DNA of 64,000 nt. It comes from Clostridiales bacterium. Lineage in GTDB: Bacteria; Bacillota; Clostridia; Christensenellales; DTU072. The translations under genes and the position numbers were made by a program. The DNA is taken from NCBI GenBank assembly GCA_012841525.1, contig DUUO01000005.1:129247-193246 (forward strand). Reading direction: 5' to 3'. Positions 5,097 to 59,753 of this stretch are shown piece after piece. Position 1 is the stretch's first letter. Each line of letters begins with the position of its first letter. The notes under the pieces were generated by a model. It saw nothing but the letters and a program-made list of their open reading frames with translations. It was not told the origin of the DNA and searched no databases.

Positions 5097-5173
5097 CGGG
5101 GTGTGGCGCAATTTGGTAGCGCACTTGGTTTGGGACCAAGGGGTTGGGAGTTCAAATCTCTTCACCCCGACCA
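5097..5173 (+). tRNA. tRNA-Pro (anticodon TGG)
   Basis: Acceptor CGGGGTG/CACCCCG, anticodon stem CTTGG/CCAAG with loop TTTGGGA, T-loop TTCAAAT, encoded CCA. Confidence 0.9.
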
Positions 5174-5203
5174 TAATCTAGCACTTTATAAGATCTAATA
5201 TTA

Positions 5204-5280
5204 GGGCCTTTAGCTCAGTTGGTCAGAGCGGTCGGCTCATAACCGATTGGTCCGCGGTTCGAGTCCGTGAAGGCCCACCA
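5204..5280 (+). tRNA. tRNA with CAT anticodon (elongator Met or lysidine-type Ile2; not initiator)
   Basis: Acceptor GGGCCTT/AAGGCCC, anticodon loop CTCATAA, T-loop TTCGAGT, CCA end. The body resembles tRNA-Ile and lacks the three G-C pairs of an initiator anticodon stem. Confidence 0.85.
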
Positions 5281-5312
5281 AAAGAAACTTTTAATTTAAT
5301 AAACATAATAGT

Positions 5313-5389
5313 GGTCCGGTAGTTCAGATGGTTAGAACGCTAGCCTGTCACGCTAGAGGCCGAGGGTTCGAGTCCCTTCCGGATCGCCA
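5313..5389 (+). tRNA. tRNA-Asp (anticodon GTC)
   Basis: Acceptor GGTCCGG/CCGGATC (one G-U pair), anticodon stem CTAGC/GCTAG with loop CTGTCAC, discriminator G, CCA end. Confidence 0.9.
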
Positions 5390-5393
5390 ATAT

Positions 5394-5469
5394 GCCTTGG
5401 TAGCTCAGTCGGTAGAGCAAGGGACTGAAAATCCCTGTGTCGTTGGTTCGATTCCGACCCAAGGCACCA
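5394..5469 (+). tRNA. tRNA-Phe (anticodon GAA)
   Basis: Acceptor GCCTTGG/CCAAGGC, anticodon stem AGGGA/TCCCT with loop CTGAAAA, T-loop TTCGATT, CCA end. Confidence 0.9.
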
Positions 5470-5479
5470 TAATGGATGT

Positions 5480-5555
5480 GCTGGCTTAGCTCAACAGGCA
5501 GAGCAGCTGATTTGTAATCAGCAGGTTGTTGGTTCGATTCCGATAGCCAGCTCCA
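5480..5555 (+). tRNA. tRNA-Thr (anticodon TGT)
   Basis: Acceptor GCTGGCT/AGCCAGC, anticodon stem GCTGA/TCAGC with loop TTTGTAA, T-loop TTCGATT, CCA end. Confidence 0.9.
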
Positions 5556-5561
5556 TTATTA

Positions 5562-5646
<85 letters not shown>

Positions 5647-8797: not shown

Positions 8798-9127
8798 ATG
8801 TCAGAATTAAAACAGCAAGTTAAAAATAGATACGCATCATTTATTGCTTCAATATGCAACAATGCAATTGAAAAAACTGTTGGCATCTCAAAGGAATCTA
8901 ATTTAGTTAAGTCGCGTATCGCTCGCAATATGCTAAAAGATAAAAATGTACATGTTTATTTTGATGATAATAATATCATAATAGATATGTATGTTAATGT
9001 GGACTTTGGAATATCTATTCCTGAAGTAGTTTGTTCTTTACAAGAATTAATTAAAAATGATGTTGAAAAAGAAACAAGTTTTTCTGTAAAACAAATTAAT
9101 ATTAATGTAACTAATATAAATTTATGA
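8798..9127 (+). CDS. Asp23/Gls24-family (alkaline shock) protein
   Basis: The track ORF starts at 8759 inside efp. The internal ATG at 8798 (MSELKQQ) directly follows the efp stop. The family signature is ...VDFGISIPEV...INVTNI, in the position of B. subtilis yqhY upstream of nusB. Confidence 0.7.
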   Translation: MSELKQQVKNRYASFIASICNNAIEKTVGISKESNLVKSRIARNMLKDKNVHVYFDDNNIIIDMYVNVDFGISIPEVVCSLQELIKNDVEKETSFSVKQININVTNINL

Positions 9128-9543
9128 ATTATAAACTTAGAAAAAAATCTAGAGAAGCAGCGTATAAATTAATTTTTGAAGCTTTATTTTCAGACTTTTT
9201 ACCGAATAAAACGAGTTTAGATAATATTATTCTTAGTGAAGGTCTTCAAGAAGACAAAGATTACATCGAGATTGTTTACTTTGGTGTTTTAGAAAAACAT
9301 AAAGAATTGATGGAAATTATTTCTAAATTTGCTATTGGATTCAAAATAGAACGTATATACAAAGCTGATTTGGCAGCATTGTTTCTTGCAATTTACGAAA
9401 TGAAATATATGGATGATATTCCATTAAATGTTTCAATCGCGGAAGCAGTTGAATTAGTGAAAAGATATTCCACAGAAAAAAGCAGCAGATATGTTAATGG
9501 AATTTTAAGTTCAGTTTTTAAGGAAATAAATAATAGTGAATGA
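9124..9543 (+). CDS. nusB: Transcription antitermination factor NusB
   Basis: 139 aa with RKKSREAAYKLIFE... and a C-terminal KRYSTEKSSRYVNGIL typical of NusB. It overlaps the upstream gene by 4 nt. Confidence 0.9.
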   Translation: MNYKLRKKSREAAYKLIFEALFSDFLPNKTSLDNIILSEGLQEDKDYIEIVYFGVLEKHKELMEIISKFAIGFKIERIYKADLAALFLAIYEMKYMDDIPLNVSIAEAVELVKRYSTEKSSRYVNGILSSVFKEINNSE

Positions 9544-10666
9544 AAATAGACAATATATTACTATAACAGAATTAAATCACCGTTTATCTTCGTTAATATC
9601 GCAAGATAATATTTTACAAGATATTCCAATTGTTGGAGAAATTTCTGCAGTTAAAATTGTACGTGGACATATGTACTGCACAATAAAAGATGAAAATTCT
9701 GCAATTCCATTTATTGTTTTTAACATTAATTCATTTCAATACATTCCAAATGAGGGCGATAAAATACTATCTATAGGTTCCCCAAACTTTTATGAAAAAA
9801 CGGGAAAAGTTTCTTTTATTGCACAATATATTGAGCCTTTTGGCATTGGAAAATTATATGCTGAATTCGAGCAATTAAAGAAAAAGTTATCAGCTGAAGG
9901 TTTATTTAATGAAATACATAAAAAACAATTACCAAAATATCCGACAAAAATTGGTGTTCTAACAAGTAAACAAGGCGCTGTAATTAAAGATATTGTTAGC
10001 ACTATACGAAGAAAAAATCATTTAATAAATATTGAGTTAATTGATATAGCAGTTCAAGGAGAAAATGCAGTAAAAGATATCATAAATGGCTTAAAATTAG
10101 CAGATGAACAAAACTATGATGTTATTATTTTAGCTCGTGGTGGTGGTTCCTTTGAGGATTTAATGCCATTTAACGACGAACAAATCGCTAGAACTATTTT
10201 TGAAATGAAAACATGTTTAGTTTCTGCAATTGGACATGAAACTGACTTTACTATCACAGATTTTGTTGCTGATAAACGTGCTTCAACGCCAACTGCAGCA
10301 GCAGAAATTGTGGCATATAGCGTTTCGGAATTAACAAACGATATTAATGACTTTATGTTTAATATAGAACATAAAATTAATTTAAAAATTCTCAAAGCAC
10401 AACAAAAAATATTTTCAAAAGGAAAAGACATACAGTATTTAGCAGATAGAAAAATAAACAATTATTTAAGTTTACTAAATAAATATGTAGAAAAAATAAA
10501 TATTTTAAATCCAAATAACATTTTACAAAAAGGATATTTCAAAATAAAAAAGGATGAACAGGAAATATATAGTGTTAAAGACTTTTCTGTAGGCGATGAG
10601 CTTGAAATCATTGGCTATGATAGTGAAGTTACCGTTGAAGTCATACAAGTAAAAAAACGAAAATAA
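9536..10666 (+). CDS. xseA: Exodeoxyribonuclease VII large subunit
   Basis: 376 aa. N-terminal OB fold (GEISAVKIVRGHMYCTIKD) and catalytic core (ARGGGSFEDLMPFN, GHETDFT, DKRASTPTAAAE). Confidence 0.9.
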   Translation: MNENRQYITITELNHRLSSLISQDNILQDIPIVGEISAVKIVRGHMYCTIKDENSAIPFIVFNINSFQYIPNEGDKILSIGSPNFYEKTGKVSFIAQYIEPFGIGKLYAEFEQLKKKLSAEGLFNEIHKKQLPKYPTKIGVLTSKQGAVIKDIVSTIRRKNHLINIELIDIAVQGENAVKDIINGLKLADEQNYDVIILARGGGSFEDLMPFNDEQIARTIFEMKTCLVSAIGHETDFTITDFVADKRASTPTAAAEIVAYSVSELTNDINDFMFNIEHKINLKILKAQQKIFSKGKDIQYLADRKINNYLSLLNKYVEKINILNPNNILQKGYFKIKKDEQEIYSVKDFSVGDELEIIGYDSEVTVEVIQVKKRK

Positions 10667-10716
10667 CACATAAAATTTACAAATATTAAAGAATTATTGT
10701 ATATGGAGGCATTATA

Positions 10717-10920
10717 ATGGATTTTGAAGCAAATTTAGCAAAGCTTGAAAGTTTACTCAATAAGCTTGAAAATGAACAAACCACAATTGATGAAAGTTTG
10801 AAAATTTATGAACAAGCAATAACTTTATCAAAAAAATGTATTGATAGTATCAACAAAAGTAAAGGTAAACTTGAAATGCTAACTCAAGAACTAAATAAAA
10901 TTGATTTTGATATTAATTAG
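10717..10920 (+). CDS. xseB: Exodeoxyribonuclease VII small subunit
   Basis: 67 aa helical protein (FEANLAKLESLLNKLENEQTTIDESLKIYEQ), immediately after xseA with SD GGAGG upstream. Confidence 0.85.
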   Translation: MDFEANLAKLESLLNKLENEQTTIDESLKIYEQAITLSKKCIDSINKSKGKLEMLTQELNKIDFDIN

Positions 10921-10974
10921 TGCTATATTTTGCTAATATACAATATTTCTTGTTTTTTATGTTATTATAATAGT

Positions 10975-11550
10975 ATAAAGAGTGCTACTGTATTCTAGTC
11001 AGATAAGATACAGCTGAAGGCGGGGTTAAAATACCGTCAAAGAGCATATCGATGAAGTTCCTTGTGTTTGCTTGAGTTGCCCAAACTTGGGTTGATGCTG
11101 GGAGTTAAGGTTATTGGACGTCAAATAATGGCATATTTGAGCCGATCCAGTTTCCGTGGAGACCTATATTGGTGGGGTGACCTGCTGAATAGGATTAAAC
11201 CTGTTTATGCGGTGACATTTAGCTGTGTACAGTGTAGCTTGCCTTGAGCGACATAATGAGGATTAGGGTTACAAGAATAACTTGCTCGCGAACTTGATTG
11301 TTCTAGTGCCTATGAAACTTATTGTTGCAAAAGAGGATAGGTTGTGTCGAATCTGTTAAAGAAATTTTCTAGACAGCCCTAGATTAAGGATTATAGTGTG
11401 TACTAAGTGGCGATTCGGTTATACTCTGAGTAATCAAGTATTGTAGAACTTAAAAGGAAACTGCTTGTTTGGCGACATCAAGTGTTTTATAGGGAAATCC
11501 TACCGAACCTATGTAGCAAGGTTTACTTAATCTACAGCACTCTTTTATGT
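10975..11550 (+). ncRNA. ole: Large structured non-coding RNA, OLE (ornate large extremophilic) RNA candidate
   Basis: A ~700-bp stretch has no credible ORF. GC is about 43% in 11101-11160 versus under 30% in the flanks. A closing helix pairs AGAGTGC (10979-10985) with GCACTCT (11537-11543). Local hairpins lie at 10988-11013, 11368-11383 and 11490-11502. TATAAT at 10966-10971 places the transcription start near 10978. The position between xseB and a 4-TM protein, upstream of nadK-argR-recN, matches known OLE loci. Confidence 0.6.
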
Positions 11551-11620
11551 TAACCAACAAAAAGCAATTTGTCGCATAGGCTAATAAATATTTTTTGTAA
11601 AATATATTGAAAAATTAATA

Positions 11621-12301
11621 ATGAAACATAAAAATTTAGAGAAAAATTGTGATGAAAACGAAAAGCTATCCGATAAAAATGGTGATAGTGAGCCTTGTGA
11701 GAATAAAAAAGCACAAACACGTTTAGCGTCAAAAACTGAAAAACAAAAAAACAAAAAAGCTAAAATTTCAAAATACAAGGCTATAAAATGGGTTTTAATA
11801 GTAACTGTACTCACTTTTGTTCTTGCTTTTTTGTTTTCTTTTGTTGCTGAAATAACTGTTTCTAAAGCAGGATTAATTTTTTCCTTAGTTTTGCTTTTTA
11901 TTTTAATATTAATCAACTATTTTTTTGATGCAATAGGTGTTGCTGCAACAGCTTGTGAAGAACAACCATTTCATTCTATGGCAAGTAGAAAAGAAAAAGG
12001 TGCAAAAATGGCAATAATGCTTGTTAAAAATGCTGATAAGGTTTCATCAATGTGTTGTGATGTAATTGGCGATATTTGTGGAATTATATCTGGTGCTTGT
12101 TCAATTTCAATTGTTTTGATGCTTTCAACAAAGATCAATAATCCACAAACAACATTTTGGTTAACCATTGCTTTTTCTGCTTTAGTAAGTGCTATTACAG
12201 TAGGAGGCAAGGCTCTCATTAAAATTTTTGCAATTAGAAAATCTAAAAATATAATTTTGCTAACTGCTAAATTTTTATCTATATTTAGTCGTAAGAAATA
12301 A
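11621..12301 (+). CDS. oapA: Small 4-TM membrane protein, OapA-like (OLE-associated protein A) candidate
   Basis: 226 aa. A ~55-aa Lys/Glu-rich N-terminus is followed by four predicted TM helices and a cytoplasmic loop with the motif DVIGD. It lies immediately downstream of the large RNA on the same strand. Confidence 0.5.
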   Translation: MKHKNLEKNCDENEKLSDKNGDSEPCENKKAQTRLASKTEKQKNKKAKISKYKAIKWVLIVTVLTFVLAFLFSFVAEITVSKAGLIFSLVLLFILILINYFFDAIGVAATACEEQPFHSMASRKEKGAKMAIMLVKNADKVSSMCCDVIGDICGIISGACSISIVLMLSTKINNPQTTFWLTIAFSALVSAITVGGKALIKIFAIRKSKNIILLTAKFLSIFSRKK

Positions 12302-12369
12302 ATAAATATTTCATTGTTTAAATTTAATATACATTAATGTATAATTAACTAAGTAAAGGGATAAAAAGA

Positions 12370-13215
12370 ATGAATTTTGGTATATATGCAAACTTAACAA
12401 AAGATTTGAATGGATTAGAAACAAAAAAAGTTTATAATTCTCTTGTTAATCTTCTCTTAAATGAAGATAATTTATTTTTATCAAATGATTTAAAAAGTCT
12501 TGAGATTGATGGAAACTATGTAAACAATGAGATTTTATTTAAATCTTGTGATATTGTTATTTTACTTGGTGGCGATGGAACTATACTCCATATCGCAGAA
12601 CTTGCTTCAAAATATAAAACAAAAATTTTAGCATTAAATTTAGGTAGTAGAGGTTTTTTAACTGAAATTCCTCCAAAAGACTTAAATAAAATTTTAAAAG
12701 ATGTTTTAAAAGGAATTTACTGCTTAGATAAAAGATTTATGATTAAAGCAAAAATAAAAAATCAAACTTATATCGGACTTAATGATGTTGTGGTTTCAAG
12801 AGGTAGTTCAAAAGCTGGTTGCTTTTACATTTATATAAATGATTTCTTGGTTGATAAATATACATCAGATGGTGTTATAGTAAGCACACCAACAGGTTCT
12901 ACAGCATATAACTTGTCATCAGGTGGTCCAATATTAGCTCCAGATGTTTCGGCATTGGTAATAACTCCAATTGCAGCTCATAGTCTACATACTAGACCTT
13001 TAGTTGTAAATTCAAACAATATAATCAAAATTGAAGCAAATAAAATATCTACAAAAGCACAATTAAATGTTGATGGAGTTGATGTTTGTACTCTTAATAA
13101 TAGAGAAAGTGTTAAAATCACTAAATCAACAAACAGTTTGTTGTTTATTAGAACAGAAACTTATAATTATTATGATAGATTTTTAGATAAGCTATTAAAT
13201 TGGGTGCTTATATAA
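12370..13215 (+). CDS. nadK: NAD kinase
   Basis: 281 aa with GGDGT, NDVVV and DGVIVSTPTGSTAYNLSSGGP motifs. SD AAAGGG lies upstream. Confidence 0.9.
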   Translation: MNFGIYANLTKDLNGLETKKVYNSLVNLLLNEDNLFLSNDLKSLEIDGNYVNNEILFKSCDIVILLGGDGTILHIAELASKYKTKILALNLGSRGFLTEIPPKDLNKILKDVLKGIYCLDKRFMIKAKIKNQTYIGLNDVVVSRGSSKAGCFYIYINDFLVDKYTSDGVIVSTPTGSTAYNLSSGGPILAPDVSALVITPIAAHSLHTRPLVVNSNNIIKIEANKISTKAQLNVDGVDVCTLNNRESVKITKSTNSLLFIRTETYNYYDRFLDKLLNWVLI

Positions 13216-13393: not shown

Positions 13394-13834
13394 ATGTCAA
13401 AAATTAAAAGACATAAAAGCATACTTGCATTAGTCAATGAAAAAAATATTGAAACTCAACAAGAATTAACTGATATGTTAAATTCATTGGGATATAAAGT
13501 TACACAAGCAACTATCTCAAGAGATATAAAAGAACTAGGTCTAGTTAAAGAATCATATGCTGGAAAAACATATTATATGCAACCATTAGATCCAAGACTC
13601 GAAAAATTAGTTTCAATATTCAGACAATCAGTTGTAAGTATAGATTATGCTAATAATATTATTGTAATAAAGACAATTGAAGGATCTGCAAACTCTTCTG
13701 CTGCTTTAATTGATTATATTAACAACCCACAAATACTAGGAACAGTTGCTGGCGATGATACTATATTTATAGTAGTTAAAACAGAGTCAGAAGTTATTAA
13801 AATTATAGATTTATTAAAAAAATACATGCATTAG
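13394..13834 (+). CDS. argR: Arginine repressor
   Basis: 146 aa. N-terminal wHTH (QQELTDMLNSLGYKVTQATISRDIKELGLVK) and C-terminal oligomerisation/arginine-binding motif GTVAGDDTIFIV. Confidence 0.9.
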   Translation: MSKIKRHKSILALVNEKNIETQQELTDMLNSLGYKVTQATISRDIKELGLVKESYAGKTYYMQPLDPRLEKLVSIFRQSVVSIDYANNIIVIKTIEGSANSSAALIDYINNPQILGTVAGDDTIFIVVKTESEVIKIIDLLKKYMH

Positions 13835-13838
13835 TAAT

Positions 13839-15548
13839 ATGATTTCAACACTTTTAGTACAAAATATCGCTTTAATTCAAAATGCAGAAATTAATTTTGG
13901 AAAAGGGCTCAATATTATTTCAGGAGAAACTGGTTCTGGAAAATCTATATTAATAGATAGTTTAAATTTTGTTTTAGGTGACAGAGCAGACAAGTCATTA
14001 ATCAGACATAACAGCGAAACCGCTCTAGTCGAAGTTACCTTTGTCGATGTTAAAAATAAAGAAATTGAAAATTTATGTAATTTATATGGAATTGATTTTG
14101 ATGATGAAATTATCATTAATAGAACCATGACAATTAATGGGAAAAATGAGTGTAGAATCAATGGACGGCTAATTACAGTTTCTCAAGTTAGAAAAATTGT
14201 TTCTCTGTTAGTTGACGTGCATTTACAACATCAAAATCAGTATTTATTAAATGAGCAAAATCATATTTACATATTTGATGAATATATTGGCAATTCAATT
14301 TTGAAAATTAAAAATCATTATAGAAGTTTATTAACCACATATAACAATATACTAAAAGATATAGCGTCATATGGTAATGAAAATGAAAGAATTTTTGAAA
14401 TCAATATGTTATCACATCAATTAAAAGAAATTGAATCAACAAAAATTGAAAAGGGAGAAGAAGAAAATTTAATAAAACAAAGAAATATATTGCAAAATCA
14501 AGAACATCTAATCTTGTTGTTAGAAGAAGCAGCAAATCTTTTAGATTATGGCAATGAATTTTCTTGTTTATCGTCACTAAACAACATACTAAAAAGCTTA
14601 AAGGGAACTGAAAAATATACAGATAACTACATTCCTTTAGTAGATAGAATAGAAAGTTGTAGTATTGAACTTAGCGATATATTGTCAGAAATTAAAAACA
14701 CACTAAGTGATTTTAATTTATTAGATATTAGTTCTCTAGATTCTATTAATAAAAGATTAGATCAAATACGTTCAGTAAAAAGAAAATACGGAAGTGATAT
14801 TGAAAGTATTCAATCTTTTTATAATCAAGCAAAAAACAGGTTAGAAAAGTTATTAAATGCAGAAAATCATCTTAATAAACAAAAAGATGAAAAAGATAAA
14901 ATATATAAACAATTATTAAAGTTAGCTGACGAGATGCATTTGCTTAGACAAAAGCATTCAAAAAGTTTTGCCAATGAAATAATTTCTCATTTAAGAGATT
15001 TGGATATGCAAAATGTTCAGTTTGAAGTAAATATAATAAAAAATGAAAATATAAGTTTTGAAGATTTTAACAATAATGGTTATGATAATGTTGTTTTTAA
15101 CATCAGTCCAAATCTTGGTGAGCCTTTAAAAAATTTATCAAAAATTGCTAGCGGTGGCGAAATGAGTAGATTAATGGTAGGGCTAAAAAACATCACTGCA
15201 GATTTTGAACATATTGATACATTAGTTTTTGATGAAATAGATACTGGTATTAGTGGATATGTAGCAAAGACTGTAGCAAAAAAATTATATAACATAGCAT
15301 TAAATCATCAAGTTATATCAGTTACACACTTACCACAAATTGTAGCAATGGCAGATGTTCATTTTTTAATTTCTAAACATACTAAAAATAATTCCACTTT
15401 TACACAAGTTACAAAGCTAAATGAAGAAGAATCATTAAAAGAAATTATGAGACTTGCAGGAAGTGATACAAAAAGTGTAGCTGGATTAAATAATGCAAAA
15501 GAGCTTAAAACATGGGCAAACAACTATAAAACACTTAAAAACAGCTAG
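13839..15548 (+). CDS. recN: DNA repair protein RecN
   Basis: 569 aa. Walker A GETGSGKS, a long coiled-coil middle, the SMC signature ASGGEMSRLM and Walker B LVFDEIDTG. Confidence 0.92.
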   Translation: MISTLLVQNIALIQNAEINFGKGLNIISGETGSGKSILIDSLNFVLGDRADKSLIRHNSETALVEVTFVDVKNKEIENLCNLYGIDFDDEIIINRTMTINGKNECRINGRLITVSQVRKIVSLLVDVHLQHQNQYLLNEQNHIYIFDEYIGNSILKIKNHYRSLLTTYNNILKDIASYGNENERIFEINMLSHQLKEIESTKIEKGEEENLIKQRNILQNQEHLILLLEEAANLLDYGNEFSCLSSLNNILKSLKGTEKYTDNYIPLVDRIESCSIELSDILSEIKNTLSDFNLLDISSLDSINKRLDQIRSVKRKYGSDIESIQSFYNQAKNRLEKLLNAENHLNKQKDEKDKIYKQLLKLADEMHLLRQKHSKSFANEIISHLRDLDMQNVQFEVNIIKNENISFEDFNNNGYDNVVFNISPNLGEPLKNLSKIASGGEMSRLMVGLKNITADFEHIDTLVFDEIDTGISGYVAKTVAKKLYNIALNHQVISVTHLPQIVAMADVHFLISKHTKNNSTFTQVTKLNEEESLKEIMRLAGSDTKSVAGLNNAKELKTWANNYKTLKNS

Positions 15549-32788: not shown

Positions 32789-33865
32789 ATGTCCAAGCAA
32801 AATAACTATTTTGATGAAAGAAATTTAAAAACCTATGAAAGGTTTGAAAAAATCGTTGAAGAAGATCTACCCTATTTTTGTATCGAGTTCTTTAACGCCA
32901 TTGATACGCAAACAACTTATTTAACTAAACTTAATTATGCTATGGACCTTGCAATTTTTTTTGATTTTTTAATACATAAGCACAAAGACTTTAAAGGACT
33001 ACTACCAATTGATATAGAAATTGAACAATTAAACTCAATTGCTGCTACAGATATTGAATATTTTCTTAGATATCTTTCATTTTATAAATATAAAGGCGTT
33101 CAAAGAAAAAACTCTGATAGATCAAAAGCTCGGAAATTAAGTACAATTAAATCACTTTTTTCTCATTTTTATTCTAGAGACAAGTTAAAAGAAAACGTAA
33201 CAACTAAGGTTAAATCACCTAAAATTAGATCTAAACCTATTATAAGGCTTGAAGATAACGAAGTTAATCAACTTTTAAAAAATATTGAAAGTGAAAATGC
33301 CTTAAACAGCAAATTTCAAAATTCTTATAATAAAAAATTAAGTTTTAGAGATTATACAATTATAACCCTAATTCTAAACACTGGAATTAGAATTAGTGAA
33401 TGCGTTGGACTAGATATTGATGATATTGACTTAAGCAATAATTCGTTTTCTGTTACAAGAAAAGGTGGCAATATTGCACAATTATATTATTCTAATGATA
33501 TAAAAGATCTTCTTGAACTATATTTAGAGCATAGAAATAATGTTATAGCAAAAAATAGAGAAATCGATCCAAAAGATGCTAATGCCCTATTTATATCTTT
33601 ACAAGGAAAAAGATTAGGCGTTCGTTCTATTCAAAATATAGTTAAAAAATATGCAAAAACAGCGGCACCTCTTAAAAACATATCTCCACATAAATTAAGA
33701 GCAACCTTTGGAACAGCATTATATAATGCAACTGGCGACATATATGTAGTTGCAGAAGTTTTAGGGCATAAAGATATTAATACTACAAAAGAATATTATG
33801 CAGCGACCTCAGAAAAAATCAAAAAAGATGCCGTATCATCATTTTCATATGAAAAAAACAATTAA
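32789..33865 (+). CDS. Tyrosine recombinase (XerC/XerD-like phage-integrase family)
   Basis: 358 aa. N-terminal SAM-like core-binding domain and a catalytic domain with R (TGIRISE), HKLRATF, LGHKDINTT and a nucleophile Tyr (EYY). No phage or ICE cargo genes are adjacent. Confidence 0.8.
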   Translation: MSKQNNYFDERNLKTYERFEKIVEEDLPYFCIEFFNAIDTQTTYLTKLNYAMDLAIFFDFLIHKHKDFKGLLPIDIEIEQLNSIAATDIEYFLRYLSFYKYKGVQRKNSDRSKARKLSTIKSLFSHFYSRDKLKENVTTKVKSPKIRSKPIIRLEDNEVNQLLKNIESENALNSKFQNSYNKKLSFRDYTIITLILNTGIRISECVGLDIDDIDLSNNSFSVTRKGGNIAQLYYSNDIKDLLELYLEHRNNVIAKNREIDPKDANALFISLQGKRLGVRSIQNIVKKYAKTAAPLKNISPHKLRATFGTALYNATGDIYVVAEVLGHKDINTTKEYYAATSEKIKKDAVSSFSYEKNN

Positions 33866-34000: not shown

Positions 34001-34630
34001 ATGAAAAAGTTAAATCCTGAATTAACAGAGCTTTATAATTTTTTAACTGAGTTTATTAATATGCATGGATTTGCTCCTTCGTATAGAGAAATACAGTCTG
34101 CTTTAGGATATAAATCAATTTCAATGGTTAAACCTAAATTGTTAGAACTCGAACAACTAGATAAAATTAAAATCAATAATTACAAAAGTAGAGCTATAGA
34201 AATAAAAACCTTAAAAAACGACACTCCTAAGCATGCTGATTGTATTACATTTGAAAATATAAATGAATGTTCTGCAATAAAAGACTTTCAATATCATAGT
34301 GTTTCAATATCAAAAACCCTACTACCGAGCATTAACTCTCATAGTAATTGCTTTGTGCTTAAAATGATTGGCTCAAGCATGACAGATGCAGGCATTAATG
34401 ATGGAGATTTCGTTTTAATTAAAAGTCAAAATACTGCTAAAACAAATGATATTGTTTATGCATTAATAGAAGATGAATTTACAACAATAAAAAAATACAT
34501 AAAAAAAGGAGAAAAGATAACACTTTTACCTGAAAATAAGAGCATGAAAGCGATTTTTCCGAAAAAAATAGAGATTTTAGGCGTGATTGTTGGTTGTCTT
34601 AAATTAAGTTTTAATAATGGCAAAAATTAA
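34001..34630 (+). CDS. lexA: LexA-like S24 repressor (divergent)
   Basis: 209 aa. N-terminal LexA wHTH (GFAPSYREIQSALGYKSISMVKPKLLELEQL) and an S24 domain with Ser (IGSSM) and Lys (TTIKKY). No Ala-Gly was recognised at the expected cleavage position. Confidence 0.75.
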   Translation: MKKLNPELTELYNFLTEFINMHGFAPSYREIQSALGYKSISMVKPKLLELEQLDKIKINNYKSRAIEIKTLKNDTPKHADCITFENINECSAIKDFQYHSVSISKTLLPSINSHSNCFVLKMIGSSMTDAGINDGDFVLIKSQNTAKTNDIVYALIEDEFTTIKKYIKKGEKITLLPENKSMKAIFPKKIEILGVIVGCLKLSFNNGKN

Positions 34631-37370: not shown

Positions 37371-37446
<76 letters not shown>

Positions 37447-37494: not shown

Positions 37495-39681
37495 TTATTT
37501 CTTATTGTTTTTTGCTGTTTCTTTTAATTTCTTTGCTGTTTCTTCATCTAATAAATCAGCAAGGGTTGCACCCATAGATTCACTACTAATATATTCATTG
37601 CTTTCTGTTTGTTGATTCTTTTTGTGTTTAGAATTTTCTTTAGTAGATTTGGAAAATTTTTCTGCTGGCTCTTTGCTTGGTGCTGCTTGCTTTATGCTAA
37701 GTTTTACTTTATTAAAGCGCTCTGTTCCAATAACTTTTGCCTCTATTTCTTGTCCAACAGTTAATTCATCACTGATTGATTCAATAAATTTGTCAGCAAT
37801 TTCAGATATGTAGACAATTCCTTCATCTTCACTTAAATCTATTACTGCAAAGAAACCTTTTTCTGGTATTTCTTTTACAGTTCCTTTTACAATTGTCCCA
37901 ATTGGATATTTTTCAGCAAGAATTTCATGAGGACGCTTTTGAAGTTGCTTATAGCCTAATGAAACTCTATTGTTTTCTCTATCAAAGTTTAATACAACAA
38001 ATTCATAAACTTTCCCAATTTCTAGAACTTCTTCAGGTTTTTCAATTTTAGTCCAACTTAAGTCACCAATATGTGCTAAGCAATCATGACCATCTATCGA
38101 TACAAATGCACCAAATGGCTTATCATCTTTATAACCAAATCTTTTTACTTTACCTTCAAGAACATTGTTAACATCAATTTTTGCCCAAAAAGCCTCTTCT
38201 TTTGATGCTTTTTCTTCTTCTAAAATTAATTTTTGACTTGCAAAAATTGTTCTTTTCCTGGTATTTTTATTTTCGGAATCTTCTGGAGGCAAAATACGTA
38301 GTCTTAACTCTTTGCCGACATATTTGGTAATATCTTTAACATGTCTAAAGGTAATTTGGCTTGCAGGAACTAATATTGAATAATCCCCCATTTTTCCAAT
38401 CAAACATGAATTATTGGGGGTTGTTCTATGAAAAGTAAACTTAAAATCTTCACCTTGTAAAATTTTTTCTGCTTTTTCGTTTTCAATTTGTCTTTTATCG
38501 TATGCTTTTTTTGAAAAATAAAATTGTTGATTTTCATGCCTTAAAAAAACGGCTTTAATTATATCACCAGGTTTATATTTATCAGCATCATAATCTCCTT
38601 CCATTTCAACTTCATCTTTATCAATAAAACACATATCAGCTTTTCTATGTGTTTCTACTAAATTACAACGTAAACCTGTTTCATCTGCAAAAACAACCTC
38701 TACTTCTCTCATTTCGCCTGGTTTAATTGGCTTTTCAGATTCAGTTAGAGACTTTTCCATTAATTCAGCAAATTGCTCTTCTTTGCTTTTTTGTTCATTT
38801 ACATTTTGATCTTCTAGCTTTTGTTCTTCAGTCTTATTTAATTCACTCATTACCTTTATAACCTCCAACACCAACTCTTTGGGAGTAGATGCCCCCGACA
38901 ATATGCCGAGCGTTTTAATGCTTTCTTTATTCTTAACCGATTTTAAATCAGAAATTGTAGTAACAAAATATGTGTTCTTGCAAATTTTATTTGAAATTTC
39001 AAATAATTTAGTTGTATTACTACTTATTTTATCCCCAATAACGAGCACCGTATCAGCCTGATTTGCTATCTCCACAGCACTGTTTTGTCGTTCTTTTGTA
39101 GTATAACAAATACTATCTAATATGACAACTAATTTATTTTGAATATCTGCATTTTTAGATAAATTCTGTGCATATATTGTATGTTTATTATAATTATAAG
39201 ATGTTTGAGTAACTAAAAAAAACTTATCTGATTCACTTAAGAAATCAAAATTATCACTTTCATCAATAAACAATTTGTTTTTTATTAAACTTGAGAATCC
39301 TAATACTTCTGGATGCATAGGATTGCCTAAAATTAAAACTTTATATCCTTCCGCTTCTTTCTTTACTACTTCATCTCTAACAATCTGCACTTTAGGACAA
39401 GTTGCATCAATTATTTTGCATGATTTTTGATTTAAATAATCAATATTTTCCTTCGATTCTCCATGTGCTCTAATAACAACAACTGAATTATTAGGAATTT
39501 TCTCAATATCATTTACAAAAATTGCACCTTTTTTCTTTAAACTATCTACTACAAGTCTATTGTTTATTATTTCTCCTAACATATACACTTGTTTGTAAGT
39601 ATCAAGGGCATTATTTAATAATTCAATTGACCTTTCAACCCCTTTACAGAATCCAATAATTTTTTGAGTTAGAATTTTCAT
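37495..39681 (-). CDS. ispH: Fusion protein: 4-hydroxy-3-methylbut-2-enyl diphosphate reductase (IspH/LytB) N-terminal domain plus ribosomal protein S1-like repeats
   Basis: The IspH part carries GFCKGVERSI, IRAHG, DATCP and SSNT. It is followed by about four S1 OB-fold repeats (e.g. GKVKRFGYKDDKPFGAFVSIDGHDCLAHIGDLS) and a Lys-rich tail. The start is assigned to ATG 39681 (MKILTQK), 1 nt from the cmk stop; the track ORF extends to 39756. Confidence 0.85.
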   Translation of the reverse strand: MKILTQKIIGFCKGVERSIELLNNALDTYKQVYMLGEIINNRLVVDSLKKKGAIFVNDIEKIPNNSVVVIRAHGESKENIDYLNQKSCKIIDATCPKVQIVRDEVVKKEAEGYKVLILGNPMHPEVLGFSSLIKNKLFIDESDNFDFLSESDKFFLVTQTSYNYNKHTIYAQNLSKNADIQNKLVVILDSICYTTKERQNSAVEIANQADTVLVIGDKISSNTTKLFEISNKICKNTYFVTTISDLKSVKNKESIKTLGILSGASTPKELVLEVIKVMSELNKTEEQKLEDQNVNEQKSKEEQFAELMEKSLTESEKPIKPGEMREVEVVFADETGLRCNLVETHRKADMCFIDKDEVEMEGDYDADKYKPGDIIKAVFLRHENQQFYFSKKAYDKRQIENEKAEKILQGEDFKFTFHRTTPNNSCLIGKMGDYSILVPASQITFRHVKDITKYVGKELRLRILPPEDSENKNTRKRTIFASQKLILEEEKASKEEAFWAKIDVNNVLEGKVKRFGYKDDKPFGAFVSIDGHDCLAHIGDLSWTKIEKPEEVLEIGKVYEFVVLNFDRENNRVSLGYKQLQKRPHEILAEKYPIGTIVKGTVKEIPEKGFFAVIDLSEDEGIVYISEIADKFIESISDELTVGQEIEAKVIGTERFNKVKLSIKQAAPSKEPAEKFSKSTKENSKHKKNQQTESNEYISSESMGATLADLLDEETAKKLKETAKNNKK

Positions 39682-39682
39682 A

Positions 39683-40348
39683 TTATTTAAAAAATTTAGA
39701 TGCCAAATTAACAGCTTGTTTGAAGGTATCTTCAATTGTGTTGTTTGATGTATCAATTTCTATAGCATCATCTGCTTTTTTTAATGGTGCAAAAGATCTA
39801 GTAGAATCTTGCAAATCTCTCGCTTTGATTTCATTTAATAGATCATCATATTCTACTTCAATACCATTTTGTGCTAACTCTTCTTTTCTTCTTTTAGCTC
39901 TCACTTCAGGCGTTGCTATTAAAAATATTTTAAGTGCTGCACTTGGCAAAACATAAGTTCCAATATCTCTACCATCTAACACACAATCATTTTGAGATGC
40001 AATTTTTCGTTGCATTTCTACTAGTTTTTTTCTCACTAATTTAATTTTAGATACAGTAGATGCGAGCATGCTTATTTCATTTGCTCTAATATCTTTTGAT
40101 ACATCTACTCCGTCTAAAAAAACATGTTGTGCTGAATTAATATATTTAATTTCCAAATTAACTTTATTCAAATGTTCTACAACCAGCTTTTCATTGTTTA
40201 CATCAATATTATTTTGCTTCATCGCCAATGCTATTGTGCGATACATGGCTCCTGTATCTAAGTACAATATATTAAATTCTTTAGCAATATTTTTTGCCAG
40301 TGTGCTTTTTCCTGAACCAGCGGGTCCATCAATTGCTATGTTTATCAT
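39683..40348 (-). CDS. cmk: Cytidylate kinase
   Basis: P-loop IDGPAGSGKST with the (d)CMP-binding motif DGRDIGT. The ATG at 40348 lies 9 nt after GGAGGAG; the track ORF starts at a TTG at 40366. Confidence 0.9.
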   Translation of the reverse strand: MINIAIDGPAGSGKSTLAKNIAKEFNILYLDTGAMYRTIALAMKQNNIDVNNEKLVVEHLNKVNLEIKYINSAQHVFLDGVDVSKDIRANEISMLASTVSKIKLVRKKLVEMQRKIASQNDCVLDGRDIGTYVLPSAALKIFLIATPEVRAKRRKEELAQNGIEVEYDDLLNEIKARDLQDSTRSFAPLKKADDAIEIDTSNNTIEDTFKQAVNLASKFFK

Positions 40349-43274: not shown

Positions 43275-46200
43275 CTATTTTTTTCTTCTAATTGCTTTTC
43301 TTAAAATTCTTTTACGTGCAAAAAACGAAAAAACTAAAATAATTACAGTTAATCCTAATACTCCACCAATAACAATATATGGCAAATTAGCACTTTTAAC
43401 ATTTGTTTGTCCACTTGATGTAACGTTGTAAGTAATCTTTTCTTCTTTGAAAACAAAATCATAGTTTTGAGCTTGTCCAACTTGTGGAATTGCAATATTT
43501 TCACCTAATTTTGATTGAGAAATTATAACTACAGGTTCTTTTTCTAAACTTGTAACATCATCATTTCCAAAAAATCCTTCATATTCTATTATAAATCTAG
43601 GCTTTTCTGATATAACAGTATCATCTATTTTTACTACTACAGTTAAATTTGCTTTTTTAACTCTAAAATTCAAACTACTTACTCCAGTGATAGTATAATT
43701 AGGATCTCTTGATGATACAACAACACTATAGTCACCAGCATCTTTTACTTCATTTGGACTAAATACTTTATAAGGCTTAAACAAGTCATCTTCCATTGCA
43801 CCATTTACTGTAATTAGAATGTTTTCTTTTTGGTCTTTGCCATTATACACAATGTTGTCATAATTAGAAAATGATATTGTTACTGCTTTTGGTTTTATAA
43901 CAAGTTTTCTTGTTTGAGTTGCAGCATTATAATTCGTGTTTTCTTCAAATTTAGCATATACTATATGATTTTCACCTGCTGGTGCATAAAGTAAATTTTG
44001 AGAATCAAAACTATAGGAAATAATTGCGTTTTCATTTAATCCAAAAGGACTTTTGGCTTTTGCTGTTATTTCAGTAAAACTACCATATTCTTGTCTAAAG
44101 TTTCCAGAAAATTCTATGATAGGATTTACTTTTTCAATAATTAAATTTGTTGCTGGGCCTTCTATTTCATAATCGCCTCTTTTTACAAAACTAGTAACTC
44201 TATATCTACCTGCATTAATTGGTGGTGTTGACTCCCCATCATAACTTAAATGTAGTGTTGCACCCTCAGCAAGCGATACACTTGCTTCTATTTCTTTAGG
44301 TTTGTTATCAAAACTTACAGTTTTTTCATTTAGAATTAAATCTCTATAAATAGGTAAAACTTTTGCTGGAATCGTTAACACATCAACTACATTTAATATG
44401 TAATTGTTTTCCAATTTATCTTCAGTGTCAGTAAAAATGCTTTTAAGTTTAATATTTCTTACTTGAACAGCATTTGGAGTAAGGTCATGACTTGGATAAA
44501 GCAATTCAGCAGAATAACCATCTATAAATAGCTTGTCAAGATCTGATTCTATTACATTTGTAAATTTATAATAACCACCTTGCGAAATATCTACATCAAC
44601 TGTGCCATCTTCGTATTTAACATACTCATTACCTGCTTGTATTCCAATATTTCTCTTTTGTATAATTAGCCTTGCTGTTATATTAGAGTTTGTAAAAATG
44701 TAATTTTGATCATTGTTTTCAACTTTAACTTTAATATTATATATACCAACATTTTTTATGTTCTCAATAGGAACAATATTTTCATTAATTTCTGTATATA
44801 AACTTATGTTAATATTTTGAGATTCAAGCGTTTCATTTCCTACTAAAGTAACTGGTTGAATATACAAATCAAAGTTATCGCCATAAATTGATTGTCTTTC
44901 GTCAACATTGAAAGCAACTTCTATTTCCTTTGCTAAAATTTCACCAGTTTGTTCAAGTTCATACTCACTTAATAAATCAAAGTTATTAGCATATCTATTG
45001 TCAACAAAATATTCTACAAATATAGTTTTATTGGCACCTGCATCTTTATTTGAAAATCTAGCACGTACTGACAAGCCTCTTAAAATGGCAACACTATCAA
45101 CAACTTCAGAGTTTTTCCATAAATTTTCTTCAATAATTACTTTGTCTGTACCATCGTAAATCTTATTAAGTGATAAATTTATTTCATATTTAGTTTTAAT
45201 CGGTCTTTTATCAATGTATAGGCGAACTTCAGAGTTAAGATCACTAACATAGTTTGTACTTTTCATGTTAATACTTAGCAAATAACCGTTATCATTAAAA
45301 TTAATGTGACCTTGTTCTAATTCACTTATAGAGGAATCATTCAAAGAAATATCAAAATATTGTCCCTTTTTTTCATATGAGTCATTTGCACTTCCATCGC
45401 CGACAGATTCTTCAGGGTTAATAATTTCTAAATAATCATAAATTTGTGACACATAGACATTATCACCATAGATAAAACGAAGAGCACCATCTTCTGGCGT
45501 ATCTATAGAGATTTTTTTAGGAAGTATTTGATATTTGTTTTCCATATTAACAGGATCAATTATTACTTCTATGTTTTTCTTATGTGGATGATCGTTGCCA
45601 TCTACTTTTTCCCAGTCATAACTTAGTAAGTCATAATAAGCAGCATTAGTAGCAATTGGAACCGTATATATTAAATTGAAAGTAATTTCAACGAAATTTG
45701 GCAAATTAACAGTTATTGTTTCTTTTAATTCTGGTGAAATATATGAACCATCATATTCTTTTGAAAATATTTTAGGATTAACATTATGCTTATATTTTAC
45801 AATTCTCACGCCATATTCATTAGAAGCAACTAAATTTATTTCATAATTATCATTTGATGATGTTGCTGTTTTGAAAGGATATATTCCATTATTTTCTGTT
45901 CTAACATCTTCACCTGGCTCTCTGGTGAGTGTAACTGTTATATCTTCAAAAATTGAACCGTGAGTTACTCTATGGACATAAGAATAAGAAAGATCAGACA
46001 TTCCAAACTCTTGAACTATTTCTCTATTTAGCGGTGTATACTGAATAGTCATCTTTTTAATTTCAAAGATTTTTTGAATATCAACACTTTCAAAAAATTT
46101 GTAATTTACATTTGTAATTGATAATTCTATTCTATATAGTCCAGCATTTTTTATTTCAGATACATCTATTTGTATCTCTTCTTGCTCCAATAGTTTTTTA

Positions 46201-49200
46201 TAATAAGCTGTTATGCCGAAAATATTATCAGAGCCAATAATATCTTGAGAGCTTGGAGTTATTTCTCTTACTTGAGCATTATAAGGAATTCCGTCTGCTA
46301 CTCCTTGTCCCCAAGATATATTTGAAATTGTTTTTTTCGTAATTTGAAAATAAAATATTTTATTGATGTTTTCATCCAAAACATAATTTGTTAGAGTTCC
46401 CTCTAAATCATCAATTTTTGCAACATATTCTCCTGCGTCCACAATGCTGGTAATAAATGTTTCATTACCATCCATATCAATAGAATAAAAATTAGGCGAA
46501 AATTGAATGAGTGATAACTCTTCTTTCATTTTGTTTTTTGCCTCAAGCGAGGCATTGTTATCTATTGGTATTTCTAATTTTGTTCCAATGTTCAAAGACT
46601 CTGCATTATATTCCCATGAACTTTGACCATCTGGTATTTTTTCGCCATCTTTTGTAAATACAGATGTAATTGTGGTTTTTAAAATTTCAAACTCAAAAAA
46701 TCTTTTGCTAACTTCAACGGTATAATTGGATGCTCTTTCATTGCTAGAAGTTGGTAAACTTACTTCTAGTCTATATCGACCAGCATCGCGCACGCTTATT
46801 AATACATCTGAATATACACCTTGACTAATTACACGTCTAAATTGTCTTATATACCAACTAGGTAATGAATCTTTATCAATTTCTGGAATTGAAGATGATG
46901 AGTTTTCTATAATTATTTGATCTTTTTTATCCAATGTATCATAAATAATTTCTCCACCATTAATGCTAAAATCAGGAGAAACAACTAATTTTTCAATGTA
47001 AAACTCTTGATAAATTGTTTCATCAATTAATTTATAATTATTTGATGCGGTTCCAATTAAGTTTGCTTTTGCAAAATATTTACTTGCATTAATTAAATTT
47101 TCTGGTGAAATGCTTGTACCTTGTTTTGTTAATTTGGTATATGATAATGATATGCTGATTTTAGTATCATCATTTTTATCATTTTCGCCTAGTTGATTTT
47201 CATCAGTAAAATTACAATTAATTGTTTTAACATTGTCATCAAAAACTAAATTAGTATAATTAGAAAAAGTGACACTGACATCTTTTTTCTTTATATCAAA
47301 ATAAAAAGCTTCTGATATTAATTCATAATTTGCATTATTTGGATCTTCTGGATTAAGAGAATTTTCTACATAATATGAGCCACTATTTACAACTTCATTT
47401 TCCGTAATTTCTGAATAGTTAGATTCTCCATCAGCTTTGTAAAAATATGATAAAACAACACTTGCTGGAAAAGATGATAGACTCTTACCTATTTCAAATG
47501 TTATATTTTCCTTCAAATTAAAACTGTTGTAAACATATTCCCTGTTACCTGTATATGTAAAACTCAACGCTCTCTTAGTTATATCAAAATTAACATCCTT
47601 TTCACCAGTATAATTACCATTTCCAATAATTTTAACTATTGCTTCTCCCACATTAACATTGTCGGAGTATGTTAAATTGTAATCTACCAATAAATATAAT
47701 GTCTCAATGATGTTATTTCCTTTTTTTAATCTAACATTAACATTTGGTGTAATTGCTTCTCCTCTAAATTCTTGAGGCAAAATTCTAGAAATTTCAATGC
47801 TTGGCATATCAGAATAAATCGCAGATAAATCATATGGAATAACATTAATTTTAACTTCATTTCCTACAGGTGCTCCATCTTCCCAAATTTCAGGTTTATA
47901 GTTATTGCTGCTACTACCTGTAATTATTACAGTACCTTCATACTGACCTACATTAGTAATTTCACTATGATTAGGAATAGAAATTTCAACAGAAACATTT
48001 TGTAAGTCTGAATTTTCAATGCCTGATCTTTCATAAGTTATTTTGCTTTTAATATCTTCTCCTCTATAAACAAATTCTTTCTGAGGAATCGTTATTTTTA
48101 TGGTTTTAGGTTTAACATTAAAAACAAATTCACTTGATGGCATTTTAATTTTGAAGTTAGGATTAACGCTAGTATATGTCGGTGAAATTTTATATGTTCC
48201 AACATCTTTTACTGAATTTACTATTAAATCATCAACATAATAATTTAAATTTACCTTATTTAATTCTGCTCTTGTAAGCCTTGGCTCTTCGTCTGTAACT
48301 TGAACAGCGTTAATAAATGGTTTTAAGTCAGTTGCATTATATGTCAATTCTGAAAATAATGCTTCATTGAATTTATACGCTAAAGTAAAAGCAAATTTTT
48401 CAATTGATATGTTTGCAGTTTTTGTACTTGCATTGATTATATAATTTTGAAATTCCTTCGTCGTCCCTTGTCCTGTGGTTTCTTTTACGACTAGGCTTGC
48501 TTCTACTTTATAAGTTATTGCATCACGAAAATCAGATACTTCATTTGTTGCAGCTTTTCTGAATATATATGTCCACTCAAGCTCTCTTTGGCCAGATTTA
48601 TCTCTATTATATATATCTTCACTTGAATTTGTAACAGCATAATTTTGTTCATTTCCGTTATATACTAAGGGAATATAATCACTAGATAAAATATCAATTC
48701 CATTAATTTCCCATACAACATCTATTACTTTTGCTACTACTCTAAACATTTTACCTCTAGAAGTTATTTCAAATCCTTCTCTCAATTCATAATTGTTACT
48801 ATCAGACCCACTTAATGTAAGTCTAAAATAGTATGTTCCTACATCAACTGCATCAACTGCAATGGTATCGTTAGAATTGTTGGATAAATAACTTTTAGAT
48901 GATAGTGAGACATCCTCATTACTGACAACTCCACTTGGCTCTACTTGTGGAATTATAGGTGCACCTATGTAATTATAACTATATGCTCCATCGTCTCCTA
49001 ATTGACCAAGAGAATCTTCAGAATATACAAAATCAAGTTTTCTTTTTGTTATTTTACCAGAAGTAAAACGCATTTCATTTGTTGTGGTTTTATAGTTTAC
49101 ATAATCTAATGACATTGTTCCATTTACATCTACTCCACACAATGTAATTCCTGTGATTGTAATTTCTTTATTATCTCCTACACTCTTATCAGAAAATTCT

Positions 49201-59595: not shown

Positions 59596-59753
59596 TAACT
59601 ACTCCTTATGATTTTATATGTTTCTTTTATAATATTGCCTTTCTTTATTAATTATCCAAATTTTTACAAATTTCATCTATTTTTAATTTTGAAAAATCAT
59701 AGTTTTTTATAATTTGAATGTCATTTTTTATTAATAAACATACATTATTACTT

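Follow-up and report, generated by a model that had tools for sequence, protein, structure and literature searches.

In a 64,000-nucleotide (nt) stretch of contig DUUO01000005.1 from a Clostridiales bacterium (hereafter the window, meaning the whole stretch that was analysed), we found a gene for an OLE (ornate, large, extremophilic) RNA and, downstream of it, the gene for the membrane partner of that RNA, OapA. We assign a probability of about 0.96 to this reading, in which positions 10977-11545 (+ strand) are the OLE RNA gene and positions 11621-12301 are oapA. An earlier note, written from the DNA sequence alone, had proposed that the gap between xseB and a membrane-protein gene encodes an OLE representative or a divergent relative, and had named the OLE covariance model as the check. 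We scanned the whole window against the covariance models of Rfam 15 at their gathering thresholds. The OLE model, RF01071, matched without truncation from its first position to its last (1-616 of 616), with a score of 391.5 bits (gathering score 50; E = 1.6e-111). The assignment to OLE held, and the suggestion of a divergent relative did not: the RNA is a canonical representative. The score falls in the range of other OLE RNAs from uncultured Bacillota (388-440 bits); the OLE RNA of Paenibacillus turpanensis scores higher, at 514 bits. The host also belongs to the Bacillota, as a protein 100% identical to the window OapA has been deposited from a metagenome-assembled genome (MAG) labelled 'Clostridiales bacterium'. 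The nearest OLE loci come from Clostridia MAGs, for example Candidatus Stercoripulliclostridium, and the same locus was found on at least 24 public contigs; samples that carry the contig include ERZ2648292, SRR30427517 and JGI 3300002898. We conclude that the 570-base RNA is an ordinary OLE RNA of full length, from a family that had already been described.

The match extends to the details of structure and sequence. With respect to the model, the window OLE lacks about 13 nt at one hairpin tip and the whole of a 12-nt mini-hairpin (model 424-435), and 131 of the 149 model pairs are canonical. Its minimum free energy (MFE) fold, computed from the single sequence and closed by the terminal helix P1, has an energy of -163 kcal/mol (z = -2.55), and none of 100 shuffled sequences was as stable. 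The highly conserved single-stranded motifs of OLE RNAs are kept: UCUAGUCAG, AUCGAUGAAG, GGAGUUAAGG, CCGUGGAGAC, AAACCUG, CAGUGUAGC, ACUAAGUGG and GGGAAAUCCUAC. In the kink-turn (K-turn) region for the protein OapC, which comprises J4a/5, P5, J5/6 and P6's left shoulder, the segments AUCGAUGAAGUUCCU and GGGAGUUAAGG agree with the model consensus. The site for the protein OapB is likewise present. Binding of OapB needs a GNRA tetraloop together with a single-nucleotide bulge within P13 beside P12.2 (PMC7936274), and both determinants, the bulge C11426 and the GUAA loop, are intact in the window P13, as judged from the model alignment and pair counts.

Starting from an OapA alignment, we collected 80 genome loci, added five metagenome loci (n = 85), and searched all of them by nhmmer with the window OLE as the query. 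A same-strand OLE homologue lies upstream of the oapA homologue in 81 of the 85 loci, nearly always ending 30-100 nt before oapA. The 70 full-length OLE homologues were aligned with MAFFT (alignment A2), and the window keeps every invariant column. When the Rfam structure was laid on these sequences, 81.7% of cells were paired, and 125 of the 159 pairs showed two-sided changes. The covariation score was 0.504, against 0.202 in shuffled alignments (0 of 500 as high) and 0.12-0.19 with slid partners. Covariation across 70 orthologous loci, a kind of evidence that the earlier note had asked for, supports the structure.

The helix that closes the element had been described in the earlier note as AGAGTGC (10979-10985) paired with GCACTCT (11537-11543). 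This helix is real and is longer than described: its 10 base pairs (bp) form the P1 of OLE RNAs. In a register-free test, the duplex between an RNA's own 5' and 3' ends had a mean energy of -14.5 kcal/mol, compared with -8.6 kcal/mol for mismatched partners, and none of 2000 permutations did as well. Compensatory changes are evident among the homologues, as in GGUGGU/GCCACC, UAAGACA/UGUCUUA and GGCGGC/GCCGCU. The duplex test replaced a column-based count on the MAFFT alignment, in which the window sequence is shifted by one column relative to most others; that count gave only 38% pairing for P1.

Inside P1, the comparative set also gave clean covariation support for two long-range elements, P2 and P3/P3.1; all of these helices, P1 included, are absent from the Rfam consensus structure. 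Four pairs of the P2-type helix are invariant in 70 of 70 sequences, and the fifth is U-A in 32, U-G in 23 and C-G in 15, with zero mismatches. For OapA, binding to palindromes within or close to P2 has been reported (PMC12265935). The P3/P3.1-type helices, which have P4-P9 inside them, total 13 bp and are interrupted by an internal loop of 2 nt. Their cells are paired in 77.3% of cases, compared with 58.8% after shuffling, their covariation score is 0.515 against 0.214, and two-sided changes occur in 13 of 13 pairs. We took the helix names P2-P9 from the text of PMC12265935, so that the naming is inferred, including the identity by position of the two stacked long-range helices with the P3/P3.1 of the literature. 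According to that paper, P3 and P3.1 usually total 12 bp with a small internal bulge, and the segment is proposed to cross the membrane.

Of the three internal hairpins that the earlier note had drawn, two were rejected as conserved structure and the third is supported only in part, although every string that it cited (AGAGTGC, GCACTCT, CTGTAT/ATACAG, TCTAG/CTAGA, TAGG/CCTA and TATAAT) was found at its coordinates. The hairpin CTGTAT/ATACAG is paired in only 46.7% of cases across homologues, and ATACAG instead belongs to the covarying long-range P3/P3.1-type helix. The hairpin TCTAG/CTAGA is paired in 44% of cases and is incompatible with P12, a helix with 97% pairing and two-sided changes in 9 of 9 pairs; the 5' arm of this hairpin, TCTAG, pairs long-range with the invariant UCUAG of the P2-type helix. 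The hairpin TAGG/CCTA survives in part: its outer pairs are not conserved, but of its inner GG/CC pairs one is present in 69 of 70 sequences and the other in 64, with compensatory pairs (A-U/U-A) in the other 6.

The gene that follows the RNA encodes a 226-amino-acid (aa) protein, which the earlier note had called a membrane protein, and its features identify it as OapA. Its sole family match, to the Pfam CNNM domain (PF01595), is sub-threshold (27.0 bits; cut-off 28.4), neither a CBS nor a CorC domain was found in its 226 residues, and no NCBIfam model matched it. Residues 147-151 (DVIGD) form a DxxxD motif in which D147 and D151 are invariant in 25 homologues. An AlphaFold 2 (AF2) model, with a predicted local distance difference test (pLDDT) score of 77.7 and values above 78 from residue 50, contains long hydrophobic helices at residues 47-82, 85-111, 138-171 and 175-206. 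The first 46 residues are of low complexity and poorly conserved, and the N-terminal region is basic. Sequence searches of the PDB gave weak matches, the best being CorB (7M1U/7M1T; E = 0.24), so that a comparison of folds was needed. Foldseek placed archaeal CorB (7M1T, 7M1U) and the CorC transmembrane domain (7CFF) at the top of its PDB matches, with probabilities of 0.75-1.00. In addition, the window protein shares 39% identity (E = 3e-48) with the OapA of P. turpanensis, whose gene comes right after the 514-bit OLE RNA there. A CNNM score just below threshold, the lack of CBS and CorC domains, the DxxxD motif and four helices are the reported hallmarks of OapA, and 7M1U is the reported top structural match for the OapA of Halalkalibacterium halodurans (PMC11332333). 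A further trait ascribed to OapA is the lack of a proline that is conserved in CNNM domains.

The operon around the pair points in the same direction. The genes nusB, xseA, xseB, nadK, argR and recN are all present, in that order, around OLE and oapA. The genes ispA, dxs and tlyA, which the earlier note had also listed for the operon, are absent, both from the locus and from among all open reading frames (ORFs) of at least 90 aa in the 64-kb window. We regard the nusB/xseA/xseB...nadK/argR/recN context as typical of the OLE family, not strictly defining. The locus of the closest relative (L004) has a compact operon layout like that of the window; its xseA (L004:4141-4878) was called as only 245 aa, compared with 376 aa in the window, and a truncation, a frameshift or an assembly error is possible there. 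The RNA also stands out in composition. The G+C content is 40.2% over the helix-bounded core, compared with 22.9% and 27.8% in flanks of equal length and 27.8% in the whole window, and the jump noted earlier within the gap (26 of 60 in 11101-11160) was verified.

Immediately upstream of P1 lies a candidate promoter. The TATAAT box (10966-10971), from which the earlier note had expected transcription to start at the closing helix, is conserved in position: in 60 of 70 loci, a -10 box (at least 5 of 6 matches) ends 10-22 nt upstream of the P1 anchor, compared with 10-23 of 70 in control windows further upstream. This conservation supports an OLE-specific promoter, and many of the homologous loci carry TTGACA-17-TGnTATAAT. 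The ole gene of H. halodurans is reported to have its own promoter within the operon (PMC9723947). A consensus scan of 10500-12500, which includes the interval from xseB to nadK, found no terminator-like site, so that transcription probably reads through from OLE into oapA and the two are likely to be co-transcribed. From the sequence, transcription would start at about 10975-10980 from the -10 element, and the transcript would probably extend into oapA before the RNA of about 570 nt is trimmed to a stable species bounded by P1. As a separate observation, a T run directly follows the 3' strand of P1 in many homologues (A2 columns 801-822; for example L038, L063, L016 and L082). The window carries CUCUUUUAUGUU at 11541-11552, and the T run could mark a processing or termination signal.

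Several points weigh against our identification or the interpretation built on it. Eighteen of the 149 model pairs are non-canonical in the window. The P7-type hairpin measures 31 nt, compared with a median of 58 nt, and is the second shortest of 70; the P11-type hairpin is absent. The consensus promoter scan found no acceptable -35 element for the TATAAT box, which for that reason it did not list, and -10 boxes of this sort are common in DNA with 28% G+C. The same scan returned 14 promoter-like sites in a 2-kb region, compared with 10.2 +/- 3.3 in shuffles; as such sites are no commoner than in shuffled DNA, the scan alone is uninformative. For this organism, the start of transcription, the RNA's 3' end and its stability are all inferred, and the mechanism of transporter regulation discussed below is a hypothesis taken from the literature.

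The shortened hairpins bear on the alternative that fares best, namely that a streamlined genome retains a decaying, non-functional remnant of an OLE RNA. Such decay would account for a P7-type hairpin that is short, for a P11-type hairpin that is missing and for the lost operon neighbours ispA, dxs and tlyA; the length from P1 to P1, 569 nt, is the third shortest of 70 (median 600), and reduced OLE variants are known from lineages with reduced genomes (PMC11332333). Nonetheless, we consider it very improbable. Against it stand the retention of all invariant columns and of the canonical model pairs, the intact OapB site, and an intact oapA with its invariant DxxxD. Other elements are of ordinary size: P8 has 32 nt (median 33), P9 has 97 nt (median 97), and the P5-, P6-, P13- and P14-type elements are of typical length. 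According to PMC12265935, dimerisation involves no contacts by P7 and P8, which can be lost. Moreover, the L004 locus retains the same compact OLE (388 bits) even though its OapA is only 70% identical to that of the window, which argues for purifying selection.

Slimmer still is the chance that the region is a long, G+C-richer 5' leader of oapA, such as a riboswitch or attenuator, rather than a separate functional RNA. A same-strand position just ahead of oapA, and the lack of any terminator-like site in between, would suit a leader. However, no riboswitch or leader family reached its gathering score, whereas the OLE model fitted over its full length; about 170 base pairs covary over 570 nt, with the helix that closes the whole element among them; OLE and oapA are separated by 0.5-2.4 kb in four loci (L045, L069, L077 and L078); and in H. 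halodurans the OLE RNA builds up as a discrete species of about 630 nt (PMC9723947). We give even less credence to a small protein as the source of the conservation. The only ORF of at least 40 aa on the + strand of the gap lies at 11062-11247 and encodes 61 aa. It opens with TTG, however, and the segment aligned to it is free of stops in any frame in just 13 of 69 homologues, which bears out the earlier view that the gap holds no credible gene; the variation tracks base-pair covariation rather than codon patterns, and indels are irregular and concentrated in hairpin tips. Finally, we assign no weight to another large structured RNA class with a superficial likeness to OLE: nothing was found in its favour, ROOL, GOLLD, raiA, RNase P, tmRNA and T-box gave no match at the gathering threshold anywhere in the window, where tRNAs were the only families besides OLE to reach it, and ARAGORN found no tmRNA there either, in line with the earlier exclusion of RNase P, tmRNA and T-box.

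Table 1. Features of the OLE/oapA locus in the window, with positions counted from its first letter.
Feature	Position	Strand	Remarks
OLE RNA gene	10966-11556	+	Rfam RF01071 extent; helix-bounded core 10977-11545, 569 nt
P1 5' strand AAAGAGUGCU	10977-10986	+	Pairs with 11536-11545
P1 3' strand AGCACUCUUU	11536-11545	+	Pairs with 10977-10986
P2-type helix, 5' strand UCUAG, palindromic core	10994-10998	+	Pairs with CUAGA 11369-11373
P3/P3.1-type 5' strands	11000-11014	+	CAGAU 11000-11004 with AUCUG 11351-11355; GAUACAGC 11007-11014 with GUUGUGUC 11341-11348
P3.1/P3-type 3' strands	11341-11355	+	Covariation
P12 5' strand UAGAUUAAG	11380-11388	+	Pairs with CUUAAUCUA 11526-11534; overlaps CTAGA arm of the TCTAG/CTAGA hairpin proposed earlier
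P13 hairpin	11421-11441	+	Single-nt bulge C11426; GNRA tetraloop GUAA 11430-11433
P14.1 loop	11472-11475	+	Second GNRA loop, GCGA
Candidate OLE promoter, -10 region	10960-10971	+	TATAAT 10966-10971 overlapping an extended -10 (TG 10960-10961, TATTAT 10963-10968)
oapA	11621-12301	+	226-aa OLE-associated membrane protein, CNNM-like transmembrane domain; 75 nt after P1
nusB	9124-9543	+	Upstream operon gene
xseA	9536-10666	+	Upstream operon gene, 376 aa
xseB	10717-10920	+	Upstream operon gene
nadK	12370-13215	+	Downstream operon gene
argR	13394-13834	+	Downstream operon gene
recN	13839-15548	+	Downstream operon gene
Gene order			pepQ-like, efp, asp23, nusB, xseA, xseB / OLE / 226-aa membrane protein, nadK, argR, recN, pheST

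The homologous loci held further observations. Three of them (L040, L065 and L075) encode OapA homologues but have no OLE by nhmmer or at the Rfam gathering score, even with about 4 kb upstream included; in these genomes ole is sited elsewhere, or else the proteins are OapA-like and have no OLE RNA. In the four loci with a wide separation, something has been inserted between the OLE RNA (L045:942-1579, L069:1293-1846, L078:1661-2228 and L077:2922-3491) and oapA. One of these, L078 (CAVEJT010000021.1), places OLE and oapA on a contig titled 'Bacteroidaceae bacterium', which is probably a mis-binned Bacillota contig or a case of horizontal transfer; it can be likened to the 24 non-Bacillota matches mentioned in PMC11332333. 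The OLE RNAs of the Oscillospiraceae type (for example L013, L084 and L043) carry an extra G+C-rich hairpin, GAAGCGCGC...GCGCGCUUGC, directly after the long P5-type hairpin (A2 columns 159-194), and an extended P1, GCUAAGC/GCUUAGC (A2 columns 20-33/801-808).

Elsewhere in the window, a 753-aa protein encoded at 37495-39756 (-) joins LytB/IspH to S1 RNA-binding domains. The fusion indicates that the organism has at least part of the methylerythritol phosphate (MEP) isoprenoid pathway, though dxs and ispA are not near OLE. A 2730-aa ORF at 43275-51467 (-), with only weak matches to YDG and MBG domains, probably encodes a giant protein of the surface or adhesin-like type. Between relA/spoT and htrA, at 5097-5646 (+), lies a cluster of six tRNA genes (Pro, Met, Asp, Phe, Thr and Tyr), and a single tRNA-Trp gene lies at 37371-37446 (+). 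In the segment 32789-36050 (+), a tyrosine recombinase/integrase gene (32789-33865) adjoins lexA (34001-34630) and the gene for a 477-aa PadR-domain protein; the recombinase may be a XerC/D-type housekeeping enzyme and not part of a mobile element. The nusA-infB gap (59595-59754) is too small for ylxR/ylxQ-type genes.

OLE RNAs belong to the largest non-coding RNAs of bacteria for which no biochemical function is known, even in model species, and recent cryo-electron microscopy (cryo-EM) work reportedly suggests that they may span the membrane. By analogy with characterised OLE RNAs, the window RNA would dimerise, bound (cooperatively) by OapA at palindromic sites flanking P3/P3.1, and would in this way be anchored at the cell membrane, or possibly across it. 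Joined by OapB (YbzG, KOW) and OapC (YbxF, L7Ae), it would form a ribonucleoprotein that helps the cell to withstand cold, excess Mg2+, short-chain alcohols and poor or alternative carbon sources. These statements on the dimer, OapA binding, the membrane and stress come from work on the OLE RNAs of H. halodurans and Clostridium (PMC12265935, PMC11332333, PMC9723947, PMC7936274 and PMC10898510). The biochemical mechanism that we consider likeliest, though at somewhat less than an even chance, is that OapA would form a divalent-cation transporter of the CNNM type for which OLE would serve as regulatory or sensor module, in place of the CBS/CorC domains of the all-protein relative MpfA. MpfA is reported to anticorrelate with OLE. 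A ribozyme or other catalytic role seems unlikely, and the remaining weight goes to roles not yet proposed.

Because the RNA is of an already known kind in its usual setting, novelty is low. As an ole-oapA pair, the locus is a textbook case; any Rfam scan would annotate it, and nothing in it is categorically new. It does show that an OLE RNA can be recognised from raw sequence, as it was in the earlier note. We further considered whether the window OLE and that of L004 define a naturally minimised yet complete form of the RNA, with 569 nt, a P7-type stub, no P11, a retained OapB site and an operon without ispA, dxs and tlyA. We regard this as doubtful. If it were true, this compact natural example would indicate that the P7 tip, P11 and the link to the isoprenoid genes, with ispA, dxs and tlyA as neighbours, are dispensable for OLE function, and structural studies of the still unresolved domain 2 could then draw on a smaller construct.

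Compared with known systems, the window OLE shares some traits with the described variants 1 and 2, as it is likewise somewhat reduced and comes from an uncultured lineage of low G+C content (PMC11332333). In variant 1 (TANB77-type), P7, P8 and P9 are shortened and the OapB site is often missing (Fernando & Breaker 2024, PMC11332333); we rejected this variant, as only the P7-type hairpin of the window is short, P8 and P9 have median lengths and nothing of the OapB site is lost. Variant 2 (RF39-type), in which P7 and P8 are wholly absent (PMC11332333), was rejected since both hairpins are present. With only the P7-type hairpin short and the OapB determinants intact, the window OLE thus belongs to neither variant. 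Among the homologues, an OLE RNA at L035:3437-3967 lacks nearly all of P7-P8 (A2 columns 272-432), scores 277 bits and resembles the RF39-type variant 2.

The protein partner can be set beside the CNNM/CorB/MpfA Mg2+ transporters, with which it has in common a CNNM-like fold, the sub-threshold PF01595 match, the DxxxD motif and four long helices; MpfA and CorB carry CBS and CorC domains, whereas the window OapA, at 226 aa in total, is without both. The operon differs from that of P. turpanensis (L072), where ispA, dxs and tlyA flank OLE and oapA. The closest counterparts are the full-length OLE RNAs of H. halodurans, Clostridium acetobutylicum and C. botulinum. The RNA of H. halodurans is about 630 nt long; that of the window is shorter, with the P7-type hairpin cut and the P11-type hairpin absent, and its host, an uncultured Clostridia MAG with 28% G+C, is unlike the hosts of the model examples. 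With these full-length OLE RNAs, the window RNA nevertheless shares the full-length model fit, the conserved motifs, P1, the long-range P2, P3/P3.1 and P12, together with the bulge and GNRA loop of P13, the GCGA loop on P14.1, a -10 box of its own, a downstream oapA and a host among the Bacillota.

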